DNA of 64,000 nucleotides from Myxococcota bacterium (GTDB lineage: Bacteria > Myxococcota_A > UBA9160 > UBA6930), in the NCBI GenBank assembly GCA_965223415.1, contig OZ245002.1, positions 2,528,001 through 2,592,000 on the forward strand, read 5' to 3'. The translations under genes and the position numbers were made by a program. The notes below the pieces were generated by a model that was given only the letters and a program-made list of their open reading frames with translations, was not told the origin of the DNA and did not search any database. Below, in pieces: positions 1,856 through 57,859 of this stretch (position 1 is the first letter of the stretch; each line of letters begins with the position of its first letter).

Positions 1856-3146
1856 CAGGCTGCGGAAAAACCCCGTGCGACGGGTCGAATCGGTTGGTAC
1901 AGGCATACCGGGGGGATGGAGATGCGCGGAACCGATCGAACGCAGTCCACGATGTTCAGCTACGTGTCGCCGGAGGCGCGTGTCCCCGCCGATCATCCAC
2001 TGCGCGTGACGCGGGAGATGACGAATCGCGCCCTGGTCCGGCTGGACGGGAGGTTGCGGAAGCTGTACTCGCGGACGGGTCGGCCGTCGATTCCGCCCGA
2101 GCACCTGTTGCGGGCCCTGCTGCTGCAGGTGCTCTACTCGGTGCGAAGCGAGCGGATGCTGATGGAGCAGCTCGAGTACAACCTGCTGTTCCGCTGGTTC
2201 GTGGGGCTCGAGATGGACGACCGGGTCTGGGACGTGACGGTGTTCACGAAGAATCGGGATCGGTTGCTTCGGGGAGAGATCGCGGAGGGGTTCTTTCAGG
2301 CCGTGTTGGCGGAGGCCCGCGAGGAGGGGCTTCTGTCGGACGAGCACTTCACGGTGGACGGCACGCTGATCGAGGCATGGGCGGGGCAGAAGAGCTTTCG
2401 GCCGAAGGACGAGGACCGGGGCGGCCGCGGGGGTGGACGGAAGGCGACGGAGCGGGACTTCCACGGTGAGCGTAGGAAGAACGACACGCACGCCTCGACG
2501 ACGGACCCGGAGTCCCGGCTCTACCGCAAGGGGAAGGGGAAGGAAGCGAAGCTGTGCTTCATGGGCCACGTGGTGACGGAGAACCGGCATGGCCTGGTGG
2601 TGGCGGCCAAGACGACGCTGGCCACGGGCACGGCGGAGCGCGAGGCCTCGGTGGCGATGGTGAAGCGGGTGCCACGCGGACGGCGATCGACGTTGGGCGG
2701 AGACAAGGGCTACGACACGGTGTCGCATGTCGAAGAGCTTCGAGAGCTGGGCGTGACCCCGCACGTCGCGCAGAACGACAAGGGCCGCCGCAGCGCGATC
2801 GATGATCGAACGACGACGCACGTGGGCTACGAGATCAGCCAGCGCAAACGCAAGGCGATCGAGCAGGTCTTCGGCTGGGGGAAGACGGTAGGCCCGATTC
2901 GCAAGGTGAAGCATCGCGGCAAGGAGCGGGTGGGCTGGATGTTCACGTTCACCCAGGCGGCCTACAACCTTGTGAGGATGAGGAACCTGCTATGCCCCAC
3001 GTAGCTTGTCGGGTCGAGTGGAGGGCCCCGTTGGCAGCGAGCCGGGCGTCAACCGGCGGCAAGGCCTCGATTCCGCGCTCCTTTCCTAGCCAAAGCGCCT
3101 CCAAGGCACCGTTCTCTGCGTACCATCGGCGTTCTTCCGCAGCCTG
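1856..3146 (+). mobile_element. IS5-family insertion sequence
   Basis: Terminal IRs CAGGCTGCGGAAAAAC / GTTCTTCCGCAGCCTG. CTAG target duplication at 1852-1855 and 3147-3150. Confidence 0.9.
1916..3004 (+). CDS. IS5-family DDE transposase
   Basis: MFSYVSPEARVPADHPLR, GRPSIPPE, FTVDGTLIEAWA, TTDPESRL, GGDKGYD and RKAIEQVFGWGK motifs. Confidence 0.92.
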   Translation: MEMRGTDRTQSTMFSYVSPEARVPADHPLRVTREMTNRALVRLDGRLRKLYSRTGRPSIPPEHLLRALLLQVLYSVRSERMLMEQLEYNLLFRWFVGLEMDDRVWDVTVFTKNRDRLLRGEIAEGFFQAVLAEAREEGLLSDEHFTVDGTLIEAWAGQKSFRPKDEDRGGRGGGRKATERDFHGERRKNDTHASTTDPESRLYRKGKGKEAKLCFMGHVVTENRHGLVVAAKTTLATGTAEREASVAMVKRVPRGRRSTLGGDKGYDTVSHVEELRELGVTPHVAQNDKGRRSAIDDRTTTHVGYEISQRKRKAIEQVFGWGKTVGPIRKVKHRGKERVGWMFTFTQAAYNLVRMRNLLCPT

Positions 3147-3350
3147 CTAGGACCCGGGGCCAAAGACGGAGAGATACGAGTCTAGGGCTGCGCTGAGCCA
3201 GCTGTCGTCGAGCCGCCGCAACTCGTCGATTCGCTCCTCGGGTTGGAGAATGTCGAGAAGGAGCTTCCCGAAGGGCAATTCGGGCTTGGCATCCCAGGCA
3301 CTGCCCAGCGCCTCGAGGATCTCCGCTCGCTCCTCTTCGCGGTTGGACAC
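3147..3350 (-). CDS. small hypothetical cassette protein
   Basis: 67 aa (ILEALGSAWDAKPELPFGKLL) with GTG start, downstream of attC3. Its TAG stop is part of the IS5 CTAG target. Confidence 0.55.
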   Translation of the reverse strand: MSNREEERAEILEALGSAWDAKPELPFGKLLLDILQPEERIDELRRLDDSWLSAALDSYLSVFGPGS

Positions 3351-3420
3351 CCCGCCAGCCTACCCCTAGAAGGTTCGCTCGCTGGCGCCCGATCGCGTCC
3401 AACCTGTCCGCGTTCGCCAA

Positions 3421-3521
3421 GCCGCCTTGTACCTCTGATCCAGCCGGCCAAGGAACAACCCCAGGCTACCATGGCCGTTTGAAGGGTGCTTGGAGCCGTC
3501 AGCTGCAGCCGCTTGTTAGGC
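3421..3521 (-). other. attC site 3 (R' disrupted by an 11-bp IS110 left-end scar)
   Basis: Minus strand GCCTAAC-AAGCGGCTGCAGCTGAC at 3498-3521. At the far end, GCCGC-CT-TGTACCTCTGA (3421-3438) is identical to 5297-5314. Confidence 0.8.
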
Positions 3522-3528
3522 GCCGCGC

Positions 3529-4786
3529 GGTACGGTCCGGCCACATCCTTTACAGGAGTCCAGGGACATCGTTTACACCCGGGGGATGCCCTGGATGGAA
3601 ACGGATGCAAGGAAGCAGCGGCAGGCGTTCGTTCGCGACTACGAGAGCGGTCAGTGGTCGATGAGCGAGCTGTGTCGGCGGTATCGTGTCTCCCGGCCCA
3701 CAGGCTACAAGTGGCTCGGGCGCTTCGAGTCGGAGGGGGAGGCCGGCCTGGAGGAGAGGTCCCGTGCGCCGGCTCGCTGCCCGCACAGGACGCCAGCGAG
3801 CGTGGAGCGCAAGATCCTGGCCCTTCGCGCCGAGTACGGCTGGGGTGCGAAGAAGATCTTGCAGGTGCTCGAGCGCCGGTACCCGAAGATGCAGAGGCCC
3901 GCGCGAAGCACGGTGAACGCGATCCTCGATCGCCACGGCAAGCTGCGCAAGAACCGACGTCGGAAGAAGTGGTCGCATCCCGGCGCTGCGTCGCTGTCGA
4001 CCGACCACCCGAACCAGGTGTGGCCCGCGGACTTCAAGGGCCAATTCAAGATGCGCAACGGTCGCTACTGCTACCCGCTGACCGTGACCGACCACTGCAG
4101 CCGCAAGCTCCTGATGTGCCGCGGGCTGCACTCGATTCGCACCGAGGGCGTGAAGCCGCTGTTTCGGGAGCTCTTTCGCGAGGTCGGACTTCCCGAGGCG
4201 ATTCGCACCGACAACGGTGCCCCCTTCGCATCGACCGGGATCCACGGCCTGTGCGAACTCAACGTGTGGTGGATGAAGCTCGGCATCGTGCACCAGCGCA
4301 TCCGTCCTTCGAGCCCCCAACAGAACGGGCAGCACGAGAGGATGCACAAGGACCTCAAACGCGAGGCGACCCGCCCGCCTGGCGCGAACCTCAACGTCCA
4401 GCAGCGGATGCTCGAGGCCTTTCGTCGACGCTACAACGAGGAGCGGCCGCACGAAGCACTCGGTGGAGCGTTTCCCGAGGAGCGCTACGAGCCCTCGCCG
4501 CGGCCGTACCCCAGTCGCCTCTCGCCGCCGGAGTACCCTGCGCAGATGGAAGTGCGCCGCGTGAGCCGGGCCGGGACGTTTCGGCTGAAGGCGAAGCAGC
4601 CCTTCCTGAGCAACGCACTGGCCGATGAGTACATCGGACTTGAAGAGATCGGCGACGGCATCTGGAGCATCGTCTACTACGAGACGATCCTGGGCCGCAT
4701 CGACGAGCGCAGCAGGAAGATCACCGGAGTCTGAGAGGTGTAAACGATCTACCTGGACTTGTGTAAAGGATCAGCCGGACCGGTCA
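3529..4786 (+). mobile_element. IS481-family insertion sequence
   Basis: Imperfect IRs of about 50 bp: CGGTCCGG..ATCCTTTACA..AGTCCAGG..ATCGTTTACACC and its complement at about 4737-4786. No clear TSD. Confidence 0.85.
3586..4734 (+). CDS. IS481-family transposase (HTH + rve integrase core)
   Basis: MPWMETD..SMSELCRRYRVSRPTGYKW; W.ADFKG, LTVTDHCSR, IRTDNGAPF, PQQNGQHERMH and YNEERPHEAL motifs. Confidence 0.93.
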   Translation: MPWMETDARKQRQAFVRDYESGQWSMSELCRRYRVSRPTGYKWLGRFESEGEAGLEERSRAPARCPHRTPASVERKILALRAEYGWGAKKILQVLERRYPKMQRPARSTVNAILDRHGKLRKNRRRKKWSHPGAASLSTDHPNQVWPADFKGQFKMRNGRYCYPLTVTDHCSRKLLMCRGLHSIRTEGVKPLFRELFREVGLPEAIRTDNGAPFASTGIHGLCELNVWWMKLGIVHQRIRPSSPQQNGQHERMHKDLKREATRPPGANLNVQQRMLEAFRRRYNEERPHEALGGAFPEERYEPSPRPYPSRLSPPEYPAQMEVRRVSRAGTFRLKAKQPFLSNALADEYIGLEEIGDGIWSIVYYETILGRIDERSRKITGV

Positions 4787-4790
4787 GGCC

Positions 4791-5249
4791 CTAGAACCTG
4801 GAGCTGAGCCAGGTCGCATTCCTGGCCAACAGAAAACCCACGAGAACCCTTGCGAGAGGAGACACCAGGTACCCGATGAACGTCGTCGAACTCATCCTCT
4901 CAGGAGCTGACATGGCCATTGAAAATAGAACTACGAACGCAGAGAGAAGCGAAGCAGAGCCTGCAGCCATGAAGAAGATCCCGAGCAGAACGACGCCGAG
5001 GGAGAGCCACTGCGCCCCCGGGGCAACGCTCGGCGGGTTGTGCTCTGGCATGCTGAATGCGACGTAACGCGAGAGCACCAGGAGGACGACTCCTGGAATC
5101 CAGTTGCCAGCTAGCGTGGGCCAGGAGTCCAACAGCATCGACGAGAGGGGCCTCACAAGATCCTCGGACTGGCCCATGACCAAGTAGTAACTGGAAGCCT
5201 CGTGGGCCCATTCGGCGACACCGGACGCAAGAAAGAACAGGCCGAGCAA
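4791..5249 (-). CDS. integron cassette gene, hypothetical membrane protein (start uncertain; frame open to about 5285)
   Basis: Four hydrophobic segments, lower GC, and located between the attC4 R' site and attC3. Confidence 0.65.
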   Translation of the reverse strand: MLGLFFLASGVAEWAHEASSYYLVMGQSEDLVRPLSSMLLDSWPTLAGNWIPGVVLLVLSRYVAFSMPEHNPPSVAPGAQWLSLGVVLLGIFFMAAGSASLLSAFVVLFSMAMSAPERMSSTTFIGYLVSPLARVLVGFLLARNATWLSSRF

Positions 5250-5344
5250 CGCCGTCCCAGTCCGCGCAACTTCGGTCAGCTTGAACCCCCCTTCGCGCCG
5301 CCTTGTACCTCTGAGCAGGCTCTTCGGGCCTGAGTGAGACTCCG

Positions 5345-5500
5345 AGATGGGTTCCCGGGAAAGGCCGTCGCTGCCTGAAGCCAGAGAGCTTGTCCGTTAG
5401 ATGGGCCTCCCGCCCTCGTCACCCATGCCGTGGAGTATCCGAGGCCCGAGAGCCTGCGTCTACAAGGTCCGTAGGTGAATGTGCAGGGTCGGGAGACCCG
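5345..5500 (+). ncRNA. bridge RNA of IS110-A (boundaries approximate)
   Basis: Target loop AGGCC[GTCGCTGCCTG]AAGC-CAGAGA-GCTT[GTCCGTTAGATG]GGCCT. Donor loop has GGAGTATC (5432-5439) and TACAAG (5461-5466) around the AGGC-CCGAGA-GCCT hairpin. Confidence 0.85.
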
Positions 5501-5530
5501 GGTCCCAGCTTATCACGGGGAGGAGAGACC

Positions 5531-6526
5531 TTGAAGAAGTGTCATTACGTGGGCGTGGACGTCGGGGCGAAGGAGCTCGTCGTCGCCATCGACCGGAACG
5601 GAACTCGCGAGGGCGGGCTGGTCTTTGCGAACGATCCCAAGGGCCACCAGAGGCTGATTCGGTGGGCCACGAAGGGGAATGCGACGGCGCGCGTCGTCCT
5701 GGAATCGACCGGGGTGTACGGCCTCGACCTCGCGTTCGCGCTTCACCGTGCGAAGGCGTCCCAGGTGATGGTGGCGAACCCGCGGGCCATTGCCGCGTTC
5801 GCCAAGGCATCGCTTCAACGCTCCAAGACGGATGCGCTCGATGCGGAAACGATTCTCGAGTTCGGAATGCGCATGGAGTTTTCCGCCTGGACTCCGCCGG
5901 ACCCCCGAATTCTGGAGGTACGGGCCCTCTCCCGCCGCGTGGAGGCTCTGAGCAAGACCGTGACGCAGGAGAAGAACCGGCTCCATGCCAACGACCAGAG
6001 CGAGGAGCTCAGTGAGTTCGTGAAGCAAGACATCCGCGAACTGATCGAGCTCCTGGAGGGGCGAATCGATCGGCTGCGCAAGCAAGCGTTGAAGGTGATC
6101 GAGCAGAGCCCCGAGCTCGCCAGAGACTTCGGCCACATCACATCGATCAAGGGTATCGCCGACGCAGCCGGCATCCAGTTGCTCGCCGAGCTAGGCACCT
6201 TGCCCAAGGACATGACGACCCGGCAATGGGTCGCGCATGCGGGCCTCGACCCCCGACAGTTTCAATCGGGCACCTCTGTGCACAAGCCAGCTCGCATCAG
6301 CAAGACCGGCAACGCCCACCTTCGCCGCGCACTCTTTCTTCCTGCGATGGTCGCTGCACGCTGGGAACCGAACGTGAAGGCCTTCTACGAGAAGCTGCTC
6401 TCCAAGGGCAAAACCAAGATGCAAGCACTCGTCGCCGTCATGCGGAAGCTGCTCCACGCCATCTACGGCATGCTCCGCCACGACCAGGACTTCCTTGGCG
6501 AGAAATTCTTCGCCACGAAGGGTTGA
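5531..6526 (+). CDS. IS110-family DEDD recombinase/transposase
   Basis: TTG start after AGGAGAG. Motifs VGVDVGAK, VLESTGVY, KTDALDA, HAGLDPRQFQSGTS, SKTGNAHLRRALF and VAVMRKLL. Confidence 0.95.
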   Translation: MKKCHYVGVDVGAKELVVAIDRNGTREGGLVFANDPKGHQRLIRWATKGNATARVVLESTGVYGLDLAFALHRAKASQVMVANPRAIAAFAKASLQRSKTDALDAETILEFGMRMEFSAWTPPDPRILEVRALSRRVEALSKTVTQEKNRLHANDQSEELSEFVKQDIRELIELLEGRIDRLRKQALKVIEQSPELARDFGHITSIKGIADAAGIQLLAELGTLPKDMTTRQWVAHAGLDPRQFQSGTSVHKPARISKTGNAHLRRALFLPAMVAARWEPNVKAFYEKLLSKGKTKMQALVAVMRKLLHAIYGMLRHDQDFLGEKFFATKG

Positions 6527-6543
6527 CGACGAAGGGAGTATCT

Positions 6544-6646
6544 AACGGACAGGCGGCTCAGCTGCTGGGCAGGCCCCGAAGCTCACTGAGGCGCCTGGGT
6601 GGAACCCAAGAGTACCACGCCCCAGTTGGAACGCGCGGTTGCCCGG
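6544..6646 (-). other. attC site 4, central segment with L' box (between IS110-A and IS1111-B)
   Basis: Minus strand GCAGCTGAGCCGCCTGTCCGTT, followed by AG-GC once IS110-A is removed. The interior is homologous to attC1 (CCGAAGCTC.CTGAG...GTACCACGCC...GCGGTT). Confidence 0.85.
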
Positions 6647-6724
6647 AGGGTATAGGGAGGTCAGCTCCTTGGAGAACAGCCACCTTGGCTGTGTTCCAAC
6701 AAACACTCCCCAAGGAGACTGACC

Positions 6725-7774
6725 ATGACGACAGAGTACTTCGCTGGGATCGACTTGCATCGCACCGTGATCCAGATCTGCGTGCTGGATGCGCGGGGTG
6801 AGAAGATCGCCGAGGAGAGGATCCGCTCCGAGAGCCTTGAACAGGGCCTCGGGGTCGTGGAGCGGCTGAAGTTCTTCGGACCCCATTGCCGCGTAGCCGT
6901 CGAGGCGTTGGGCCTCAACCGGTGGTTCGTCAACGCCTGCCGAGAGGCGCAGCTCGACGTTCTGGTCTGTGATCCGCGCAAGCTCGACCTGAAGAAGCTC
7001 GGCAAGAAGACGGACCGGCGAGATGCAGCCGAGATTGCACGCCGGCTCTGGCTCGGTGATCTGGATCGGGTGGCAACGACCTACTACCCGAGCGACGAGG
7101 AGTACGGGAGGAGGAAGCTCCTTCGGGTCCGCCACCGCCTCGTCCAGATGCGCCAACAGGCCGTGAACCAGCTCCGGGGCTTCCTGAACGCCTACCGGAT
7201 TCCCGCTCCCACGAGCGCGCTCTATACCAAGCCGAGCCGGGAGAAGCTCCGCACCGTCACCCTGCCGACCCTGGAGATGCAGACCGCCTTCAAGGCCCTG
7301 CTCCAGGTGCTCGATAGCCTGCAGGGCCAGGTGCTGGCTCTCGATCGGGAGATCCGACGGATCGGGCGAGAGGATCCCGACGTCCAGGCCCTCGAGCAGG
7401 AGCTCCCGAGCATCGGGACGCAATCGGCTGCCACGCTGCTCGCCGAGATCGGCGACCCGCACCGATTCCGAGGCCCCCGTGCGGTCTCGGCCTTCGCCGG
7501 CTTCACCCCCAAGGTGAACCAGTCAGCCGACCACGCCCACCACGGCCGCATGACCCGCCAAGGCCAGGCCGAGCTCCGCTGGATCGTCAGCCAATGGGCG
7601 GTTCGCCTGATGAAGGACGACCCGTTGGTTCGTGCCTGGGCGAAGACGATGCGGACCCGCGTCCACAAGAACAAGGTCCGCATGGCCTTGGCTCGCAGAC
7701 TCCTCGTCAGCGTCTGGGTCACGCTCACCCGCGGCGAGGCCTTCGATCTCCGGAGGTGCCTTGGCATGGCGTAG
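6725..7774 (+). CDS. IS110/IS1111-family recombinase
   Basis: AGIDLH, VAVEA, KKTDRRDA, AFAGFTPKVNQSA and MALARRL motifs. Confidence 0.93.
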   Translation: MTTEYFAGIDLHRTVIQICVLDARGEKIAEERIRSESLEQGLGVVERLKFFGPHCRVAVEALGLNRWFVNACREAQLDVLVCDPRKLDLKKLGKKTDRRDAAEIARRLWLGDLDRVATTYYPSDEEYGRRKLLRVRHRLVQMRQQAVNQLRGFLNAYRIPAPTSALYTKPSREKLRTVTLPTLEMQTAFKALLQVLDSLQGQVLALDREIRRIGREDPDVQALEQELPSIGTQSAATLLAEIGDPHRFRGPRAVSAFAGFTPKVNQSADHAHHGRMTRQGQAELRWIVSQWAVRLMKDDPLVRAWAKTMRTRVHKNKVRMALARRLLVSVWVTLTRGEAFDLRRCLGMA

Positions 7775-7802
7775 CCCCGCTCCCCCAGGACCCCTTCTCG
7801 CT

Positions 7803-7968
7803 TGTGTTCCAACGAAGACGGTAGGCGGGCAGCTGACTGCGGCCCATGAGCCCTTGGCCCCGATTCACCACCGTCGCCCCGAACCCCTCATTGAGCCCAC
7901 GAGGCCGACAACGCGTTTGGACTGAACCCGAACCCGCAGGGACGCAAGCCGATTCCGTTGGAGGACAC
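7803..7968 (+). ncRNA. seek/bridge RNA of IS1111-B
   Basis: Closing stem GTGTTCCAACG / CGTTGGAGGACAC. Inner stem GACGGT/ACCGTC encloses GCAGCTGAC (7829-7837), the exact reverse complement of the right flank GTCAGCTGC (8022-8030). Confidence 0.7.
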
Positions 7969-8021
7969 CACCAAGACCCACACGTGCTTCGCGATCATTG
8001 GAGTTGACACTCCCTAAACGG

Positions 8022-8037
8022 GTCAGCTGCAGCCGCT
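8022..8037 (-). other. attC site 4, L'' segment (between IS1111-B and IS110-C)
   Basis: GTCAGCTGCAGCCGCT is identical to attC3 3498-3513, where it continues TGTTAGGC. Confidence 0.85.
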
Positions 8038-8064
8038 CCTATGATGCTAGGCATGGTTAGATGA

Positions 8065-8250
8065 AGCGGCCGGTGAGCAGAGGCACTGCCCACCGGCCTT
8101 TCTCAACCGGAGCGGAAGACCGGTAGCCGTCGGGTCCCTCGTGAGACCGTTAACCAGCTTGGGTCTCCGCTCCACAGCCGCAGCGAAGCTCGAACGATCG
8201 CCTGGGCCTCTTGCGAGAGCCCGTAACCAGGAGCCCGAGTTCGTTGCACC
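8065..8250 (+). ncRNA. bridge RNA of IS110-C
   Basis: 5' hairpin GGCCGGTG..CACCGGCC. Target loop closed by GGAGCGGA/TCCGCTCC holds GTAGCCG (8123-8129) and TAACCAGC (8151-8158). Donor loop holds AGGAG (8229-8233), complementary to the left end CT-CCT. Confidence 0.7.
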
Positions 8251-8262
8251 TTGGAGTCTACC

Positions 8263-8805
8263 ATGGGGATGAACGTCGGGATCGACGTCTCGAAACACTC
8301 GCTTGATTGGACCTCAGGAAGCAAGGGGAAGCTTCAGCACACCCGCAACGAGCCGCGGGCCATCGCCCACCTCCTGCGTCGGATGGCCGAGCTCGACCCC
8401 GAGCGCATCGTCGTCGAGTCGACCGGGGGCTACGAGCGCCCGGTGGTCCAGAAGCTCGCCGAGGCGGGACTCCCGGTCGTCGTCGTGAACCCGGTTCGCG
8501 TTCGGCGCTTCGCCGAAGGCCTGGGGCTGCTGGCGAAGACGGACGCGGCAGATGCGCAGGTGCTCGCACTCTACGGCGAGAAGGCCGGGCCGCCGATCCG
8601 GCCGATTCCGATGGGGAGAAGCCGTCTGCTGGCCGATCTCATCGCACGGCGCCGCCAGCTCGTCTCGATCCTGGTGGCCGAGAAGGGTCGGCGGGAAGCG
8701 GCGCCTCGAGCTGCGCAGGCCTCGATCACGAGGATTCTCCGTGCTCTCGAGCGCGAGGTCGACGGCATCGACCAGCGCATCCAGAAGGCGATCGAAGACG
8801 ACCTC
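8263..8805 (+). pseudogene. IS110 recombinase, N-terminal DEDD half only
   Basis: VGIDVSK, VVESTGGYE and AKTDAADA motifs. The frame runs into the IS21 end at 8806, and the C-terminal domain is not found after 11107. Confidence 0.88.
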
Positions 8806-8940
8806 TGTCGAGGGACGTCATCTCTTGCGCGCTAAGAGGACGGCTAGTTTTGCGCACCCCCCTGGGTTGATGTTCGGTTCTTCCTTCTTCTCTTCCGCTC
8901 TCCGAAGGAGAGCACGGCCGTCAGGCCGCCCTCTGGGGCC

Positions 8941-9741
8941 TCAACGCTGGGCGCTTTGCCCCGCGGCCTGCTCGAGCTCGCGGAGCCGGTAGCTCCGCCC
9001 CGAGATGTTGAGCACCTGGCTGTGGTGGAGGAGGCGATCGAGGATGGCGGTGGCCAGCACCTCGTCGCCCGCCAGCACCTCGGGCCAGTCGGCGATGCCC
9101 TTGTTCGTGGTGATCAGGATCGAGCCCCTCCCATAGCGGTAGGAGACGAGCCGGAAGAAGAGGCTCGCCTCCTGGCGCGTCATGGGCTCGAAGCCGACCT
9201 CGTCGATGACGAGGAGCGCCACGTTCATGTGCTTGCGCCGCCGCAGCCGTTGCGGGCTGATCTCGGCGTCGCGCTTGAGGGCCGCCAGCAGGTCCTCGAG
9301 GCGATGGAAGGCCACGGAGAAGCCGTTCTCCACGGCCCGCACCCCCAGGGCCACCGCCAGGTGGGTCTTGCCCACTCCCGGCGGACCCTGGATCAGCAGA
9401 CTCTCCTTGGCCCGGATCCACGCGCAGGTGCCCAGCGTCTCGATCCGGCTCCGCTCCACACTCGGCTGGAAGGCGAAGTCGAAGTTGCCGAGGGTCTGCC
9501 CCGTGGGAAGGCCCGAGAGACGGAGCGAGGTCTTCATCCTCCGCTCCTCGCGGTGCTGCAGCTCGGCCTCGAGCAGCAGGTCGAGGAAGCGGTGGGGCAC
9601 GAGGTCGTCCTTGGTCGCTCGGGCCAGCTCCTCGCCGATGTGCTCGGCCGCGTGATGGAGGCCGAGGCGCACGAGCCGCTCGCGGGTCGGGTCGAGATCC
9701 ACCTTGCCGCCCTTCTTGGGCACCGGGTTTCCCGCCGTCAT
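8941..9741 (-). CDS. istB: IS21 helper AAA+ ATPase
   Basis: FDFAFQP, GPPGVGKTHLA, LLVIDEVG, ITTNK and AILDRLLHH motifs. Confidence 0.95.
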   Translation of the reverse strand: MTAGNPVPKKGGKVDLDPTRERLVRLGLHHAAEHIGEELARATKDDLVPHRFLDLLLEAELQHREERRMKTSLRLSGLPTGQTLGNFDFAFQPSVERSRIETLGTCAWIRAKESLLIQGPPGVGKTHLAVALGVRAVENGFSVAFHRLEDLLAALKRDAEISPQRLRRRKHMNVALLVIDEVGFEPMTRQEASLFFRLVSYRYGRGSILITTNKGIADWPEVLAGDEVLATAILDRLLHHSQVLNISGRSYRLRELEQAAGQSAQR

Positions 9742-11024
9742 CGCGCCACCTCCGCCAGATCGGCATAGAGGTCGATCGGCCGCTGCTCCGGCTCCATCGC
9801 CCACAGCTCCTGGAGGCGTCGACCCATGCGCCCGAGCGGTACGGGCGCCTCCACCCCCTCCGTGCTCGGCCCCTCGTAGTGGCTCGGGTCCAGCAGCAGG
9901 CGGCTTCGCGTGTGGCGCGGGTGCGCGGCCACCACCGAGCCCTCGGCCCAGACCTGCACCTGCCGGGCGCAGCCGCGCACCTCGACGCTCTGCTCGACGA
10001 AGCGGAAGGGGACGCTGTAGGTACGCCCCTCGAAGCGCACCGTGGCGTCGCGCCCGACACGTCGCATCACGGCCAGGTCGAAGGGCTCGGGAAGCCGCTC
10101 GGGCAGGGCCCCGAGATGGGGCTTCTCCGCCTCCCACGCCTGGAAGACCGTCGTGCCCGTCGCCGGGCACTGCCGCCGGTGGCTCGAGCGCGCCACCTGG
10201 CCGTCCGTCCACGCTTGCAGCGACTCCAGGCTCTCGTGCTCCCGCCGACGCGGATCGAAGCCCCGCCGGTGCCCCAGGATCCGACGCTCCACCTTCCCCT
10301 TCTCCTGCGGCTGGCGGGGACGGGTGGCGTCCACGTGGAAGCGAAGGGCCCCGGCATAGCTCGCGTAAGCCGGGTTCACCGTCCCCCATGGCCCCGCCCC
10401 CTTCGCCACCGCTGTCTTCACGTTGTCGACCCGCAGCACCGCCGGCACCCCGCCCAGCCGCTCGAAGGCCCGGTTGTGCACGTCCAGCCACGCCAGCGTG
10501 TCCGCCCGCTCCGACCACACCACCGCTTCTCGCCGCGAGTGCGAGAGCACCAGGTGGAAGGCATGCAGGTCCACCTCCTGGCCCCCGATCCGCACGCCCG
10601 GAAACTCGCCCCAGTCCACCTGACCCTGCGCCCCGGGCGGTGTCTCCACCCGACGCCGGCTCCGCACCTTCGGTCTCGGGAACCGGGCCCGCACGTACCG
10701 CTGCACGCTCTTGGAGCTCCCCGTGTACCCGTGCTCCTCCACCAGGAACTCGTGAAGCTCCTGCAGGTTCACGCCACGGCCTCCCGAGCTCGCCTCCAGC
10801 CACTCCGCGATCACCTCGTGGACCGCCTCGGCCAGGAAGGGCTTCCCGCTCCGGCCGTCTCGCGCCCCCTCCGCCAGCCGCTTCAGCCGGTAGCGCACCG
10901 CGCTCTCCCGGATCCCCAGCTGGCGGGCGATCTCCCGGTTCGAGCACCCCCGCTCGTGCAGCACTTCGATCGTCATCACTTCCTCCTGCCTCAGTCGCCG
11001 CTGCCCCACGCCCCCCTCCCTCAC
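9738..11024 (-). CDS. istA: IS21 transposase
   Basis: N-terminal HTH, ETPPGAQGQVDWG, LSHSRR, VDNVKTAV, KGKVER and YSVP motifs. Overlaps istB by 4 bp. Confidence 0.95.
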   Translation of the reverse strand: MREGGVGQRRLRQEEVMTIEVLHERGCSNREIARQLGIRESAVRYRLKRLAEGARDGRSGKPFLAEAVHEVIAEWLEASSGGRGVNLQELHEFLVEEHGYTGSSKSVQRYVRARFPRPKVRSRRRVETPPGAQGQVDWGEFPGVRIGGQEVDLHAFHLVLSHSRREAVVWSERADTLAWLDVHNRAFERLGGVPAVLRVDNVKTAVAKGAGPWGTVNPAYASYAGALRFHVDATRPRQPQEKGKVERRILGHRRGFDPRRREHESLESLQAWTDGQVARSSHRRQCPATGTTVFQAWEAEKPHLGALPERLPEPFDLAVMRRVGRDATVRFEGRTYSVPFRFVEQSVEVRGCARQVQVWAEGSVVAAHPRHTRSRLLLDPSHYEGPSTEGVEAPVPLGRMGRRLQELWAMEPEQRPIDLYADLAEVAR

Positions 11025-11324
11025 GGGGAACGTGCCGCGCAGCGGCTCAACAGGAGGTGCGCAAATCTACGTGTCCTCTTAGCCCTCGAATATCACGTCC
11101 TGCGACAGTGCCGTCTGGTGCCGCCGCAGTTGTGCGTTCGAGTCCCCACCGCGTTTGCGAAATTGAGAACTGACCCTCAGGCTCGCGGAAGGAGGGTCAC
11201 TCGTAGCTTCCCGCCTAACCGCGAATGCCTGATCCAATAGGCTGAAAGGAATTCGAACCCCCGACCCTTGTATCTACTCCACTCACCCGGATCTGGTTCA
11301 ATAGGGTCAGAACGGGTTTCGGGG

Positions 11325-11465
11325 GAGGGTCGCCGTCCCGACCCAGAGGCATGGTCCTCGTACCTGAGAGAGGCGCCCTCGCCCGATCTCGCAAGCTCGA
11401 ACGGTATCCCGAGGCAGCGGTCTGCCGCTCGTCCTCGCATGCACAAGGAAGAGCACCGAGGTCGG
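11325..11465 (+). ncRNA. bridge RNA of IS110-D
   Basis: Target loop GAGGGTCGCC[GTCCCGACCCA]GAGG-CATGGT-CCTC[GTACCTGAGAGA]GGCGCCCTC. Donor guides ACGGTATC (11401-11408) and ACAAG (11443-11447). Confidence 0.85.
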
Positions 11466-11507
11466 CACCGAGGCTCCCGACGCTCCCGTTCGAGGAGGAA
11501 GAAGGGG

Positions 11508-12683
11508 ATGCGCTTCGTTGGGATCGACATCGCCTCGGAAACGCACGTCGTCGCGATGGTGGGAGAAGACGGGGGCGTGCTGCTGAAGCCGGTCTCGTTC
11601 CGGGAGGAGGCGGCTGGCTACGCACTGCTGTGGGAGAAGCTGGGAGGCCCCGAGGACACGCTCGTAACGCTCGAGGCAACGGGGCACTACTGGAAGAACC
11701 TGTTCGCGGCGCTTGCGGCGAGGGGTTTTGCCGTGGCGTTGATCAACCCGCTGCGCAGTCGCCGGTTCGCACAAGAAGACTTGGAGCGGACGAAGACCGA
11801 CGCAATCGATGCGCTCGGCCTGGCTCGCTTCGGAGCACAGAAGCGTCCGAGGGTGACTCGCCTTCCGGACGCGGCGACAGAAGAGCTTCGTGAGCTCGTC
11901 CGGCTCCGCGATCGTCTGGTTCAGGACTTCGGGGACTGCACCCGGCGGCTCCACCGCATGGTCGATCTGGGCTTCCCAGAGCTCAAACGGTACGTGAAGC
12001 ACCTCGATAGCCAGCTGTCGACGGGGCTGCTGCGGGAGTACCCCACGGCAAGAGCCTTCCAGGAAGCCTCTGTGGGGCGCGTGGCAAAGCTTCGCTACGA
12101 CGGTCGTCATCGTGTAGGCGATGCGCTCGCGAAGCAGCTCGTCGAGGCTGCGCAGAACTCGGTGGGCGCCCATCATGGCCCGGCCTACCAGGTGCAGGTG
12201 CGTTACCTGTGCGAAGACATGGACGTCTTGCGCAAGAGACTCGGCGACATCGACCGCGACATCGCGGATCAGCTATCCGCGCACGAGGTCGGAAGCTTGC
12301 TGACGACGATCGATGGGATCGGGCCGACGACGGCAGCACGGCTCATCGCGGAGCTCGGTGACCCGGCCGACTTCGCCACGGCCGCAGCCCTCGCCGCCTA
12401 CGTGGGCGTCGTTCCAGGCCTAAAGCAGTCGGGCAAGCGCCAAGGCAAACGCGGGAACCTCTCGCCAATCGGTCACGCGCGGCTACGTCGCGCACTGTGG
12501 ATGCCGACGTTGGTCGCCGTTCGGAAGAACCCCTGGGTGCGGGCCCACTACGAGCGGCTGCGCGACAACGGCAAGCCCGCAAAGGTCGCGCTGATCGCCT
12601 CGACGAGGAAGCTGCTCATCGCGGTTCACGTCGTGGCGAGGACCCGCAAGCCCTTCGTTCCACAGCTAGAGACCAACCCATGA
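11508..12683 (+). CDS. IS110-family recombinase
   Basis: VGIDIAS, LEATGHYW, KTDAIDA, YVGVVPGLKQSG and GHARLRRALW motifs. Confidence 0.95.
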   Translation: MRFVGIDIASETHVVAMVGEDGGVLLKPVSFREEAAGYALLWEKLGGPEDTLVTLEATGHYWKNLFAALAARGFAVALINPLRSRRFAQEDLERTKTDAIDALGLARFGAQKRPRVTRLPDAATEELRELVRLRDRLVQDFGDCTRRLHRMVDLGFPELKRYVKHLDSQLSTGLLREYPTARAFQEASVGRVAKLRYDGRHRVGDALAKQLVEAAQNSVGAHHGPAYQVQVRYLCEDMDVLRKRLGDIDRDIADQLSAHEVGSLLTTIDGIGPTTAARLIAELGDPADFATAAALAAYVGVVPGLKQSGKRQGKRGNLSPIGHARLRRALWMPTLVAVRKNPWVRAHYERLRDNGKPAKVALIASTRKLLIAVHVVARTRKPFVPQLETNP

Positions 12684-12773
12684 ACCGAGAAAACCGGGCC
12701 CAGCCCCTTGCTGAAGATCACGGTATCTCAGGTTCGAAGCCTGGGGGTCGGGGGCTCTCCCACCCCACGCGTC

Positions 12774-13322
12774 CTAGTCGAGGAATGCCCACAAGAGCCG
12801 TCGGCTCCTCGCGTCCAGGCTCCCCGGGCTCGACACCAGGTAGAGATCCCCGGCCACGTCCTTGATCAGGAGGCCGCCGCCGGGCATCTCGCGGGGCCAC
12901 TCGTCCCGGAGGGTCTGGAAGCTGCGCTCGCCCTGGGCCGTGCGCACGCGGAAGGTGCGGATCTCGATCTCCTCGTCCACGTCGAGCACCGCCTGGATCT
13001 CGAGCACGAAGCCCGCCTCGAGCAAGGCCGTGCCCAGCGCCCGCTGGGCCGTGTAGGGGAGGTCGGTGAGGTCGCGCACGAGCGCCACCTCCTCCTCGTC
13101 CCGGTCACGGAGCGAGACGTAGCGCGACGGCTTCGACCAGGGGAAGCAGCGCACGGGCCGCACCGAGCAGGTGCGGTCGGCAGTGCGCGCCCAGAGCTGG
13201 CCGTCGGAGCCACGCCACAGCTCGAGGCCCGCCATCGGGCGCCGCGGAGCCTGGTGCGCCACGGCGCGTCCGCGCCGGCTGGGTGCGAGGGTCTTCGGCT
13301 CTCGTCTCTGCGGGTCGTTCAT
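12774..13322 (-). CDS. DUF1854 domain protein
   Basis: VRPVRCFPWS.P..YVSL..EEVALV and GLLIKDVAGDLY..SLDARSRRLL motifs; in its usual position downstream of this ABC transporter family. Confidence 0.8.
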   Translation of the reverse strand: MNDPQRREPKTLAPSRRGRAVAHQAPRRPMAGLELWRGSDGQLWARTADRTCSVRPVRCFPWSKPSRYVSLRDRDEEEVALVRDLTDLPYTAQRALGTALLEAGFVLEIQAVLDVDEEIEIRTFRVRTAQGERSFQTLRDEWPREMPGGGLLIKDVAGDLYLVSSPGSLDARSRRLLWAFLD

Positions 13323-13353: not shown

Positions 13354-15639
13354 TCATGCCTGGAGCTGCTGCTGGAGCTGCCACAGGTGTTGGAAGGTCC
13401 CCTCCGGCTTCGCCATCAGCTCGCCGGGCGTTCCACTCTCGGTGAGCCGGCCGTCCTCGATCACGAAGATGCGGTCGGCCCGCCGCAGGGTGGAGAGCCG
13501 GTGGGCGATGGCGAACACGGTGCGGCCCTCGGTGAGCCGCTCGAGCGCCTCCTGGATCTTGTACTCCGTCTCGGTATCGACGGCGCTGGTGGCCTCGTCG
13601 AGCACCAGGATGCGCGGATCGTGCAGGATGGCCCGCGCGATCGAGATCCTCTGGCGCTCGCCGCCGGAGAGCGTCTGCCCCCGCTCGCCCACCATCGTCT
13701 CGTAGCCGTTCGCGAGCTTGCAAAGGAAATCGTGGGCGTTGGCGGTGATCGCCGCCTCCACCACGTCGTCCTCGGTCGCGCCTGGCAGCCCGTAGCGGAT
13801 GTTCTCCATCACCGTGCCGTGGAAGAGGTACGGATCCTGGAGGACCATCCCGAGCTGACGCCGGAAGCTCCCGGTGTCGAGCCGGCGCACGTCGATGCCG
13901 TCGATGCGCACCTGCCCGCCCGTCACGTCGTAGAAGCGGGCCAGCAGGTTCGTCACCGTCGTCTTCCCGCCGCCGGAAGGCCCGACGAGACCGATCATCT
14001 CGCCCGGCTCCACCGCGAAAGAGACGCCCTGGATCACCTGGCGCACCCCGTCGTAGCCGAAGGTCACGTTCTCGAACTCGACCCTGCCCTCGACGGGCTC
14101 GAGGCGCACCGGGCAGCCGACGTCGACCACCTGGGGCTCGGTGTCGAGCACCTCGAAGATGCGGTGGGCGGAGCTGGTGGCGCGGTTCATGATGCGCGCC
14201 ATCTGCCCGATGATCTCGATCGGCTGCACGAACATGGTCATGTAGAGCAGGAACGCGACGAAGGTCCCGGACGTGAGCGTCGCGCCCATCTCCGAATCGC
14301 CGGGGATGACCCGCGGCAGCGCGAACACCCACACCAGCACCACCATCCCGCGCACGGCCAGCATCAGCGTCGGCCAGAACGAGGTCCACACCTCGTGGAT
14401 GCGGTTGAACTCGTCGGTCACGTTGTGGTTGCGCGCGCCGAAGCGCTCTTTCTCCCTCTCCTCCTGATGGAAAGCTTTCACGACCTTCATGCCGGGGATC
14501 GTGTCCGACACCACGTCGGTCACCGAGCTCCACTTGCGCCAGGCGCGCAGGAAGAGCTTGTTCATGCGCCGGCCGTGCCAGTAGACCCAGAGGCACAGGA
14601 AGGGCACCGGCAGGGTCATGATCAGCCCGAGCTTCCAGTCCAGGTGGATCAGCACCGCCGAGAGGCCGAGCAGCATCACGATGGAGAGCGACACGTCCAC
14701 GATGCCGAGCGCCAGGAACTCCCAGAGCCGGTCCGTATCCGCGGTGACCCGCGTGATGAGGCTTCCGGTCTTCTTCCTCGAGTAGAAGGAGAGCGAGAGC
14801 TTCTGCAGGTGCTCGTAGAGCTCGGTGCGCAGGTCTCGCGCCACGTGCTCGCCGAGCACGGCCATCCAGCGAAGCCGCGCCCAGGCGGCGAGCTGCCGCA
14901 GCAGGTAGCTCGCGGCGATCGCCACCACGGCGTACCAGGCGATCTGCTGCACGTCCGCCAGGGTCTTCGCCCCGTCCTGCACGGGCCGGATCACCTCGTC
15001 GACCAGGTAGCCGGTGAGGTAGGGCGGCACGAGCGAGAGCGCCGTCAGGACCGCCGCCGACGCCAGGCCGAAGATCACCTGCCCGCGGTAGGGCCGCAGG
15101 TAGCCGAGCAGCCGCCACACGACCGCCAGGTCGTTGCCGGCGACCAGCGCCTGGGCCTCCCGGATCGGGCCGGCCACGCTGTCCGCGTACTCCTCGTCCG
15201 GATCCGCCGGTGCGGGCACGGGCGAGCCGTCGAGGTCCCGCTCGATCAGGAACTGCAGGTTCTCCATCGCGCGACGCTGGCGGTGGGTGAAGCGGACGCG
15301 GGCGAGCGCCGGCTCCCCGGGCTCCCGCAGGAAGCGCAGGGTGTTGCAGGTGAGGCCCGGATCGAGCCGCACGGCCTGGATCGCCTCGCGGGCGAAGGTC
15401 TGCACGTCGAGCCGCCCGCCGAGGGCGCGGGCCACGGCCACGTGGCGCGGCCCGAGGGCGACCCACGACTCGGTGAGCTGGAGGCTGCCGTCGAGGTCCG
15501 CCAGCGCGTAGAGCTGGACGGGATCGCCGCCCCAGCCGTCCTCGATGGCCTCGCGCACGGCGCGCGGCATCGAGACGGGCTGGTCGGTGTATCGCTCGAG
15601 GATCTTGCGGTCAGTCGAGTCGGTCGGGTGCGCGAGCAT
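13354..15639 (-). CDS. ABC exporter, fused permease/ATPase with N-terminal extension (family paired with DUF1854)
   Basis: TM domain, GPSGGGKT, LSGGERQRISIARA, LVLDEATS and AHRLST motifs. Confidence 0.92.
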   Translation of the reverse strand: MLAHPTDSTDRKILERYTDQPVSMPRAVREAIEDGWGGDPVQLYALADLDGSLQLTESWVALGPRHVAVARALGGRLDVQTFAREAIQAVRLDPGLTCNTLRFLREPGEPALARVRFTHRQRRAMENLQFLIERDLDGSPVPAPADPDEEYADSVAGPIREAQALVAGNDLAVVWRLLGYLRPYRGQVIFGLASAAVLTALSLVPPYLTGYLVDEVIRPVQDGAKTLADVQQIAWYAVVAIAASYLLRQLAAWARLRWMAVLGEHVARDLRTELYEHLQKLSLSFYSRKKTGSLITRVTADTDRLWEFLALGIVDVSLSIVMLLGLSAVLIHLDWKLGLIMTLPVPFLCLWVYWHGRRMNKLFLRAWRKWSSVTDVVSDTIPGMKVVKAFHQEEREKERFGARNHNVTDEFNRIHEVWTSFWPTLMLAVRGMVVLVWVFALPRVIPGDSEMGATLTSGTFVAFLLYMTMFVQPIEIIGQMARIMNRATSSAHRIFEVLDTEPQVVDVGCPVRLEPVEGRVEFENVTFGYDGVRQVIQGVSFAVEPGEMIGLVGPSGGGKTTVTNLLARFYDVTGGQVRIDGIDVRRLDTGSFRRQLGMVLQDPYLFHGTVMENIRYGLPGATEDDVVEAAITANAHDFLCKLANGYETMVGERGQTLSGGERQRISIARAILHDPRILVLDEATSAVDTETEYKIQEALERLTEGRTVFAIAHRLSTLRRADRIFVIEDGRLTESGTPGELMAKPEGTFQHLWQLQQQLQA

Positions 15640-15684
15640 CGGTGGGCTTCCTTGCCCCGGGTCCGAACCTTGGAGTGCCGACCT

Positions 15685-15725
15685 AACGAAAACGGCCTTC
15701 CAGGCTCGCACCCGGAAGGCCGTTT
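15685..15725 (-). terminator. intrinsic terminator in the ABC-operon leader
   Basis: Minus strand AAACGGCCTTCC-GGGTGCGAGCCT-GGAAGGCCGTTTTCGTT, about 45 nt upstream of the ABC start codon. Confidence 0.75.
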
Positions 15726-57044: not shown

Positions 57045-57859
57045 CCGGAAGGACCCGAACCCTCGCCCTCGTCGCTCTCGTCGTGCTGGCCGGAGCGCTC
57101 GCCGCCACCGCCCGGGCCGAGCGGGCCATGGAGGTGGTCCGGCCGGCCCACCGCCTCGCCGAGGAGCTGGTGCCGATCGCCCAGGCGGCGCTCGGCGAAG
57201 AAGGCACGGCCACCGCGGATCCGGCGACGAACAGCCTGCTCCTGGCTGGCGAGCGCCCGGCGGTGGAGCGCGCGAAGGCGCTGGTGCAGGCCCAGGACCG
57301 CCCGCGAAAGAGCGTCACGCTCCACTGGAGCGTCCGGGACCAGGCGGAGCTGGCGGGTGCCGGCGTGCGGGTGGACTGGAGCGCCGGGAGCGGCTCGTTG
57401 CGCGTCGGCACCCTACGCTTCCCGGAGGATCGCGTGGAGGTCGCCGCCGAGATCCTGCGCACCGAGCGCGAGCGGCGGCTCGAGGGCGTGCTCCGCGTGC
57501 TGGACGGGGAGACCGGCCGGATCGGTGCGGGCCACACGGTGCCGGTGACCACCCGGGACGGCTACGGCGGCACCTCAACGGCGTTCGTCACCGGGGAGCG
57601 GGGCTTCGAGGCCACGCCGCGGATCCTCGGGAGCGGCCGTGTGCGGGTCGACCTCCTGCCGATGGACGCACGGGTCGACCGGGCCGGCAACGTGGCCTTC
57701 GCCGCTGCCGCCACCCGGGTGGAGCTCGAGCCGGGCGAGACCGTCGCTCTGGGCTCCCTGGGCGAGCGCCGGGACGCCGGGCAGCGGGGCAGCCGGGTGC
57801 TCTCCACGAATCGCCTCCGTGAGGAACGGGTCTTCCTCCTACGCGTCGAGCTGGACTGA
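57041..57859 (+). CDS. exported protein with NolW/secretin-N and short secretin-like domain
   Basis: Signal peptide, ADPATNSLLL, LRVLDGETGRI.AG and GFEATPRI motifs. Confidence 0.7.
   Translation: MTGRTRTLALVALVVLAGALAATARAERAMEVVRPAHRLAEELVPIAQAALGEEGTATADPATNSLLLAGERPAVERAKALVQAQDRPRKSVTLHWSVRDQAELAGAGVRVDWSAGSGSLRVGTLRFPEDRVEVAAEILRTERERRLEGVLRVLDGETGRIGAGHTVPVTTRDGYGGTSTAFVTGERGFEATPRILGSGRVRVDLLPMDARVDRAGNVAFAAAATRVELEPGETVALGSLGERRDAGQRGSRVLSTNRLREERVFLLRVELD

Follow-up and report, generated by a model that had tools for sequence, protein, structure and literature searches.

An IS110-family insertion sequence apparently guided by its bridge RNA to tRNA-Arg(TCG) fragments in a Myxococcota genome

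The window considered in this study is a stretch of 64,000 nucleotides from a Myxococcota bacterium (assembly GCA_965223415.1, contig OZ245002.1, positions 2,528,001 to 2,592,000), and coordinates given below are those of the window unless the genome is named. It contains an insertion sequence (IS) of the IS110 family, and the evidence taken together makes it very likely that this is an active element whose left end encodes a bridge RNA aimed at a particular segment of tRNA-Arg(TCG), the form with U26 and A44 (variable loop AGGGTC), as that segment survives in attachment-site (att) scars made of the 3' part of the gene. All features of the family that can be tested at the level of sequence are present, and by that measure the element is an ordinary IS110-group bridge-RNA element in mechanism. 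The mechanism is known; what is new is a class of target derived from a tRNA, which I have not found in print. No paper linking an IS110-family element to a tRNA-derived target turned up in a search whose scope excluded subscription journals and supplements, and the Nature paper on bridge RNA, in the part of it drawn on here, brings in tRNA only as an analogy.

The element occupies 11269..12728 on the plus strand (1460 bp, including the right-hand core CT). An earlier note on this DNA had placed it at 11241-12757; an element is indeed there, but that range takes in the flanks that belong to the target. Its sole long gene, P0001 (11508..12683, plus strand), encodes a recombinase of 391 amino acids that matches Pfam PF01548 (DEDD_Tnp_IS110, E 3.4e-36, covering 1-155 of 155) and PF02371 (Transposase_20, E 3.3e-28), and membership in the IS110 family rests on these domain matches rather than on single catalytic residues. 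The host genome is a single contig of 5.83 Mb with 71% G+C, and it holds five copies of the element, 100% identical, at five loci and all on the plus strand: c1 (the window copy), c3 near 4.9115 Mb, c4 near 4.9211 Mb, c2 near 4.9291 Mb and c5 near 5.4356 Mb. The left junction in the window reads ...CCCCCGACC-CT^TGTATC (the caret marks the junction; core CT at 11267-11268) and the right junction ACGGTAT-CT^CAGGTTCGAAG (core CT at 12727-12728). Common to all five copies are the left junction ...CCCCC(G/A)ACC-CT^TGTATCTAC and the right junction ...ACGGTAT-CT^CAGGTTCGAAGCCTG, outside of which the flanks diverge. CT is found at 10 of the 10 junctions, and each copy is co-oriented with the tRNA fragment in which it lies. 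The element has no inverted terminal repeats and a fixed orientation, both features of the IS110 group, and its ends, CT^TGTAT... and ...ACGGTAT-CT, are homologous to those of its relatives, the closest of which in the genome collection (54-70% protein identity) come from Myxococcota, Burkholderiales and other metagenome-assembled genomes (MAGs).

The bridge RNA described for the IS110 group has two loops between stems (Durrant et al. 2024, PMC11208160), and an RNA of that architecture is predicted at about 11321-11463 on the plus strand, in the left end of the element and upstream of the recombinase gene. According to an RNAalifold consensus of 29 sequences, its target-binding module (11321..11384) consists of an outer stem (11321-11334 with 11372-11384), a left guide loop (11335-11344), a hairpin (11345-11360) and a right guide loop (11361-11371). 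The left loop contains CCCGACCC at 11337-11344, the same letters as in the left flank, and the right loop contains ACCTGAG at 11362-11368, the complement of CT-CAGGT in the right flank. The donor-binding module (11385..11463) has its own outer stem (11385-11399 with 11450-11463) and hairpin (11411-11436) in the same consensus; its left guide at 11401-11409, ACGGTAT(CC), repeats at 11401-11407 the ACGGTAT of the right end, and its right guide at 11443-11447, ACAAG, complements the CT-TGT of the left end. At c1, whose target is CCCGACC-CT-CAGGT, the target loop agrees with the flanks at 7 of 7 left positions and 5 of 5 right positions, together with the core, and the donor loop agrees with the two ends of the element itself, ACGGTAT-CT at the right and TGT at the left. 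Both sets of matches had been proposed in the earlier note, target guides against CCCGACC-CT-CAGGT and donor guides against ACGGTAT-CT-TGT, and both can be read in the window at the positions just given.

The case for the structure comes from an alignment of the 300 bases upstream of the recombinase gene in 43 relatives (54-70% protein identity), drawn from 80 loci by requiring at least 250 bases upstream plus a full N-terminus. The aligned regions show a strongly conserved scaffold with short variable stretches between, and the guides fall in the variable internal loops. The 29 sequences given to RNAalifold yield two modules of stem, internal loop and hairpin, with a compensatory change in 20 of 40 pairs, among them pairs in the outer stem and hairpin of the donor module. 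A fold of the left end as a single sequence is no better than that of shuffled sequences (z -0.29), so the structure rests on the alignment. Rfam gave no family at threshold and one match below it (sX15, E 0.62, opposite strand), taken as noise. Each guide was also compared with its own flank and with those of other elements, using the 39 elements with both ends recognisable (38 relatives and the window element). The right target guide and its own right flank agree throughout (5 of 5 positions) for 30 of the 39 elements, as against 4.2% of non-own pairs, and the left target guide agrees with its own left flank at 6 or more of 7 positions in 10 of the 39, as against 3.8% of non-own pairs; the left result is the weaker partly because some left ends are misplaced in the alignment. 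Seated as they are in the variable loops of a conserved scaffold, the matches between guides and flanks are not a product of chance.

The right end of the element (12708..12728, plus strand) carries a -35-like hexamer TTGCTG at 12708-12713, the left donor sequence ACGGTAT at 12720-12726 and the core CT at 12727-12728. Were the two ends joined, they would read TTGCTG-17 nt-TATCTA, where TATCTA is 11271-11276 of the left end. A hexamer of the type TTGAC, at equal spacing from a -10 of the type TATG, is found in most of the 39 relatives; the exception is the Myxococcaceae type of left end (about 9 rows), which differs.

The sites themselves are best understood by removing the element and reading the join on the minus strand. 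ARAGORN finds one full-length tRNA-Arg(tcg) gene in the genome, intact, at 1217012-1217088. The join of c1 reads CAGG-CTTCGAA-CCTG-AGGGTC-GGGGG-TTCGAAT and has 32 of 33 bases in common with that gene, from the anticodon arm to the T-loop, as expected from the claim in the earlier note that the empty site resembles the anticodon arm, variable loop and T-arm of a tRNA; the comparison with the 3' half of the genome's own tRNA-Arg(TCG), which the note had named as a check, thus bears it out. The left half of the site (11251..11268, minus strand), a 3' fragment of tRNA-Arg(TCG), holds the variable loop AGGGTC (11263-11268), the 5' strand of the T-stem, GGGGG (11258-11262), and the T-loop TTCGAAT (11251-11257), after which similarity to the gene stops; the left target CCCGACC lies within it at 11260-11266 (plus strand) and adjoins the core CT at 11267-11268. 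In the right half (12729..12754, plus strand), CAGG-TTCGAAG-CCTG at 12729-12743 is the anticodon arm on the opposite strand, and the right target CAGGT (12729-12733) overlaps that arm. The joins of all five copies contain the anticodon arm, variable loop and T-stem of the gene, to an extent that varies by copy: at c2, from a reading of the printed sequence, the match runs from the anticodon stem to CCA with the core base as the sole difference, and at c5 it reaches the T-stem and no further. The evidence supports a programmed target that runs, in tRNA-Arg(TCG), from the 3' strand of the anticodon stem through the variable loop into the beginning of the T-stem.

That the element has disrupted functional tRNA-Arg genes might be suggested by ARAGORN, which on the IS-free joins calls tRNA-Arg(tcg) in one of five at default settings and in three of five when relaxed. 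These calls, however, are degenerate and only 68-75 nt long, the D-arm and the 5' acceptor strand of the gene are absent from all five joins, and the full-length gene at 1217012-1217088 is intact, so that gene disruption is scarcely credible. Since the joins lack the 5' half of the gene, the sites are 3' fragments and not genes. It is just as improbable that the tRNA-like sequences are the terminal parts of a longer element rather than its target. The identity of the five copies does extend past the core CT, by 10-22 nt at the left end and some 16 nt at the right, but the extent of flank identity varies from copy to copy, the same sequence is found uninterrupted at 8 places in the host genome and in 54 of 61 genomes searched, and CT^TGTAT and ACGGTAT-CT are the conserved ends of the family.

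ARAGORN also lists a tRNA-Arg(gcg) at genome 1605019-1605095 and lists no tRNA-Arg(acg) in the genome. If that is right, then tRNA-Arg(UCG) is the only reader of CGA codons and its single full-length gene would be essential.

Elements with this same guide were found in other genomes and contigs, and every one of them lies in the same tRNA fragment (all five copies here, one in a sister species, three of three in metagenomes and two sets of Logan contigs), which is the outcome favorable to the tRNA claim when the flanks of homologues are examined, as the earlier note had suggested. In the sister genome G003, a left end 92% identical to that of the window lies at a contig edge, with the same guide and the left flank TGGCACGCCGGGAGGGATTCGAACCCCCGACC-CT. 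A scan of metagenome contigs with a 21-base guide pattern gave nine loci, of which three are IS copies about 84% identical to the window copy, all in the 3' ends of tRNA-Arg; the single right flank visible among them is homologous to that of c5. The other six matches proved to be unrelated coding sequence and were set aside. Near-identical IS ends are carried by Logan contigs from two further runs (X5 and X11); these contigs agree with the window as far as 11247 or 11258 on the left side and 12743 or 12744 on the right side, where the tRNA-like part ends. A pattern for the right junction, searched in 193 genomes of the order, found the host genome and one other, G130, where the right end of a related IS abuts CAGGTTCGAAGACTG. 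The distant homologues (54-70% protein identity) have other guides and lie in unrelated and often palindromic sites; that they carry different guides at different sites speaks for programmability and does not refute the tRNA reading.

A single base separates sites that are occupied from sites that are empty. The variable loop of the host's tRNA-Arg(TCG) gene is GGGGTC, which gives the core CC, whereas the occupied sites have AGGGTC and the core CT. Uninterrupted sites of the tRNA-Arg(TCG) type number eight in the genome (the gene and seven fragments), and all eight have GGGGTC and are empty. The exact 14-mer CCCGACC-CT-CAGGT has no intact copy in the genome, no uninterrupted CT site being left, and of the eight sites with one mismatch to the 14-mer, the six that are tRNA-derived differ at the second core base only and are all empty. 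Copy c4 occupies a site whose left target has G changed to A, which would still permit a G:T wobble with the guide. The predicted guide specifies the AGGGTC allele (core CT) and not the host's own GGGGTC gene, and to me the pattern indicates that CT-core sites are selected, which agrees with the strong preference of IS621 for a paired CT core (PMC11208160).

The AGGGTC loop is found in about 36 rows of the relatives' sequences, from 22 of 60 related genomes. Among full tRNA genes, AGGGTC goes with T26 in 5 of 5, and GGGGTC with C26 in 15 of 15 rows (14 distinct genes, one of them the host's own). T26/A44 as against C26/G44 is the covariation expected of the 26:44 pair, and AGGGTC is therefore a natural allele rather than an artefact of insertion. 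Empty AGGGTC fragments occur in genomes G001 and G002, in neither of which the IS was found, and the sister genome G003 has GGGGTC in its own gene. Across the order, the covariation of positions 26 and 44 of tRNA-Arg(TCG) is clean, and some of the fragments in the host genome are mosaics of both alleles, which recombination of att sites within the anticodon loop would lead one to expect.

The fragments resemble attachment-site scars of the sort left by islands that integrate into tRNA-Arg. The clearest example is at the functional gene, where an exact direct repeat of 50 bp (genome 1217039-1217088 and 1256793-1256842), comprising gene positions 26 to CCA, flanks a stretch of 39.8 kb and a tyrosine integrase (PF00589) adjoins the gene; the stretch 1217039-1256842 is a classical island of the anticodon-loop att class, and the scar reading holds there. 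The other fragments are arranged in two arrays (genome 4911520-4929073 and 5391945-5449853; loci L100-L105) away from the functional gene, each of five co-oriented fragments spaced at 1-30 kb. Within the arrays they separate blocks that contain cargo-like genes (Fic, PIN, helix-turn-helix, DUF4143 ATPase, RimK-like ATP-grasp and P450) and many insertion sequences. Beside c3 is a remnant of an integrase arm-binding domain, cut by an IS21-like element. Several fragments share families of flanking sequence; the roughly 54 nt to the left of the c1 fragment, for example, are 85% identical to the flank of another fragment (5391864-5391917). The left neighbours of c1 are insertion sequences only.

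The arrays have the look of a tandem accretion of small integrative elements or of a cassette array. The open frame of the integrase (genome 1216112-1218280; L098:2113-4281, minus) runs about 360 codons past the catalytic domain and across the tRNA-Arg gene on the opposite strand, an extension that is probably just open frame in high-GC DNA.

Several points weigh against the account of a bridge RNA aimed at the AGGGTC segment of att scars. The left target guide reads CCCGACC-CA, which does not pair with the second core base, and it lies one position off the register of most relatives. The bridge RNA and the circle are predictions from sequence, and among the Logan contigs no joint was reported. 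No complete tyrosine integrase was found near the arrays (4.91-4.93 and 5.39-5.45 Mb) and no PF00589 match in the window, so that the scar reading of those fragments is deduced and partly supported. G130 belongs to the same order and is a MAG with 87% completeness and 6% contamination, and its functional gene has AGGGTC and is uninterrupted even though the right end of a related IS is present; a protective, mismatching allele in the host is therefore not a general rule for carrying the element. The remaining two points concern the core. The state of the five occupied sites before insertion is deduced, and the CT of the junctions could in principle come from the element; and in the palindrome at c1 the base that partners the T is G, as if the site had once had C. 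This G would fit an account that I consider improbable, namely that the element enters ordinary GGGGTC fragments with the core CC and that insertion rewrites the core to CT, the A/G difference then being a consequence of insertion. CT at both junctions of all five occupied sites and CC at all eight uninterrupted ones would agree with it, as would two groups of homologous flanks in which the occupied member has A and the empty ones G. It does not sit well with AGGGTC as a natural allele, accompanied by the compensating T26 in 5 of 5 genes, nor with the empty AGGGTC fragments of G001 and G002. A stagger of 2 nt over a mismatched core should moreover, on the published mechanism, give one CC and one CT junction in each daughter, not CT at 10 of 10, and the core preference of IS621 (PMC11208160) also tells against it.

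The hairpin at c1 raises a different alternative. The right flank at 12744-12754 (GGGGTCGGGGG) is an inverted copy of 11258-11268 and extends the hairpin, so that the IS-free join as DNA folds into 16 pairs at -19.1 kcal/mol, as against -7.7 +/- 2.1 for 300 shuffles, ending 19 nt from the stop codon (12774-12776) of a DUF1854 gene. An inverted copy forming a hairpin just downstream of that stop had been claimed, and it is present, in this form. A hairpin of such strength after a gene might suggest that the target is a REP-type (repetitive extragenic palindromic) or terminator palindrome, its likeness to tRNA-Arg being coincidental, and IS110 elements often do target REP palindromes (PMC11208160; PMC12288879). 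The sister genome G002 adds to this suggestion: after an orthologous DUF1854 gene, with no mobile DNA nearby, it has a hairpin composed of CCCCGACCCCAG, about 10 nt, CCTGGGGTCGGGG and then ATCTCTCACCC, which is not tRNA-like beyond 12-13 nt. The matching position of the window has CCTGGGGGTCGGGGG and then CTCTCCCACCCC, and the right arm there resembles the hairpin of G002. Genomes G001, G004 and G005 have other hairpins after the DUF1854 gene. Yet 32 of 33 bases of the join are those of the tRNA gene, both loops included, and the match at c2 reaches CCA; the arm at 12744-12754 is found in c1 only, the other four sites having no extended palindrome; and the hairpin is not one of a REP-like family in the genome, where the pattern CCCGACCC...GGGTCGGG gave one unrelated match. 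I regard a palindromic target as very unlikely. It is contradicted for the left half of the site, and for the right arm alone a palindrome is the likely origin. For the same reason, that the other four sites have no extended palindrome, the term att-site remnant, one of two offered in the earlier note, fits better than the other, a tRNA-derived palindrome.

The preferred explanation of c1, that of a tRNA-type att scar, then takes this form: the right arm is probably older local sequence resembling a terminator, and the left arm and T-loop probably came with the att fragment. It is a toss-up whether the local hairpin, mimicking the anticodon arm, variable loop and T-stem, had served as a secondary attachment site. 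The comparison of local hairpins rests on one genome, G002, and when the left border was sought there through the gene next to DUF1854, no close counterpart was found here, the best match, 66% identical, lying elsewhere. Read as RNA, the minus strand of the c1 join is predicted to form a long hairpin with UUCGAAUUCCUUU after it, an arrangement that would suit a terminator of the DUF1854 gene; the IS now splits it.

The anatomy of the element, the matches of guides to flanks, the copy number and the census of sites are established from the sequence. The events that I infer from them, including transcription, circle formation, catalysis and the reason why the functional gene is spared, would run as follows. 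The element would leave as a circle, its joined ends forming a promoter of the sigma-70 type (TTGCTG-17-TATCTA), and the transcript would fold into the two modules of stem, internal loop and hairpin. The donor loop would pair with the joined ends ACGGTAT-CT-TGT and the target loop with the 14-base site CCCGACC-CT-CAGGT, whereupon the recombinase would swap strands at the CT core, leaving the element flanked by CT on both sides and in one fixed orientation. In the host, the AGGGTC sequence survives only in 3' tRNA fragments, read here as att scars, all of them occupied, and the only full-length gene, with C26/G44 (GGGGTC) and thus the core CC, is not hit. At c1, the extended hairpin would probably come from the joining of a tRNA-type att fragment to a look-alike local hairpin after the DUF1854 gene. 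A more ambitious version, which I offer tentatively and with more doubt than belief, would be a lineage of bridge-RNA insertion sequences specialised on the att scars of islands that enter tRNA-Arg(UCG), keeping the same guide over at least 16% divergence, telling the scars from the essential gene by a single base of the recombination core (the 26:44 allele), filling every permissive site, traveling with islands and splitting att sites in a way that would lock the islands in place or block further integration, with the c1 hairpin as a secondary site, a terminator that imitates the anticodon arm and T-stem of the tRNA.

With IS621 and the IS110 group, as described in PMC11208160, the element shares a recombinase with DEDD and Tnp domains, CT at both junctions, a promoter spanning the joined ends (here as a motif only) and a left-end RNA with target and donor loops, each of them paired, on either side of a CT core, to segments of the two strands that are staggered. 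It differs from IS621 in the target, which is derived from tRNA-Arg(TCG) rather than from REP sequences, and in the length of the site, 7 + 2 + 5 bases here and 11 in IS621; the window protein also belongs to a different subfamily. ISPpu10 (bioRxiv 10.64898/2026.03.19.712850) likewise has its target in repeated intergenic DNA, where a GC-rich stem-loop stands beside the paired bases; the counterparts in the window element are the T-arm, which some copies have 5' of the left target, and the anticodon arm, which overlaps the right target. At 3-4 of the 5 sites, however, the 5' stem-loop is degenerate or absent, and thus it cannot be required here.

Two further comparisons concern the kind of site. 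Selection of CT-core sites in att scars, as proposed here, would make the element one more IS of the DEDD type that has specialised in sites at which other mobile elements recombine. Elements of the IS1111 group insert into integron attC sites or the inverted repeats of transposons, and their guide RNA is at the other end of the element; here the targets are tRNA-derived att scars and the guide RNA is at the left end. An anticodon-loop class of tRNA att sites, used by islands with tyrosine integrases, was reportedly described by Williams in 2002, and the present fragments are like it in that the block of identity runs from the anticodon stem to CCA and in that one island has a 50-bp repeat and an integrase. 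They are unlike it in that most have no integrase nearby, their 3' extent varies, and two co-oriented arrays lie off the gene.

Bridge-RNA recombinases are under development as programmable tools for writing genomes, and natural guide targets other than REP sequences are little known. The tRNA-derived sequence at which this guide is aimed is conserved across an order, multiplied by each integration of an island, harmless to interrupt and carried on mobile DNA. The sites in this genome also amount to a natural test of specificity, since all the CT-core sites are filled, even c4 with its G-to-A change, and the six sites mismatched only by CC are empty, including the only full-length gene. Here one mobile element has settled in the sites at which another recombines, and that could immobilise islands.

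As to the surroundings of the window copy, the border of a mobile region, as the site had been called, is an apt description: to the left lies a nest of insertion sequences (1916-12728) and to the right housekeeping genes. The nest comprises an IS5-like and an IS481-like element, three other IS110-family genes, an IS21-like element and the element described here. The three other recombinase genes (5390-6526, 6725-7774 and 8251-8835) belong to other subfamilies, the third being truncated by the IS21-like element; the genome as a whole has 16 matches to PF01548, of four kinds. On the right come the DUF1854 gene (12774..13322, minus strand; Pfam PF08909), next an ABC transporter gene (13354-15711, likewise on the minus strand), and then DsbA and the housekeeping genes.

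The IS21-like element (8806..11107, minus strand; 2302 bp), of which the genome has about 18 copies, stops 134-144 bp short of the tRNA fragment. That it might itself have carried the fragment was considered and rejected, for its copies end at window position 11107. At five places a copy of it lies no more than about 1 kb from a tRNA-Arg gene or fragment: about 140 bp away in the window, about 500 at c3, about 600 at the fragment at 5419363 and about 940 at the functional gene, with a partial copy near 5391945. The proximity could reflect a preference or merely shared junkyards. Elsewhere in the window, at 57101-57190 on the minus strand, ARAGORN calls a 90-nt "tRNA-???" with a two-base anticodon (cg), which may be a pseudo-tRNA or a false call.

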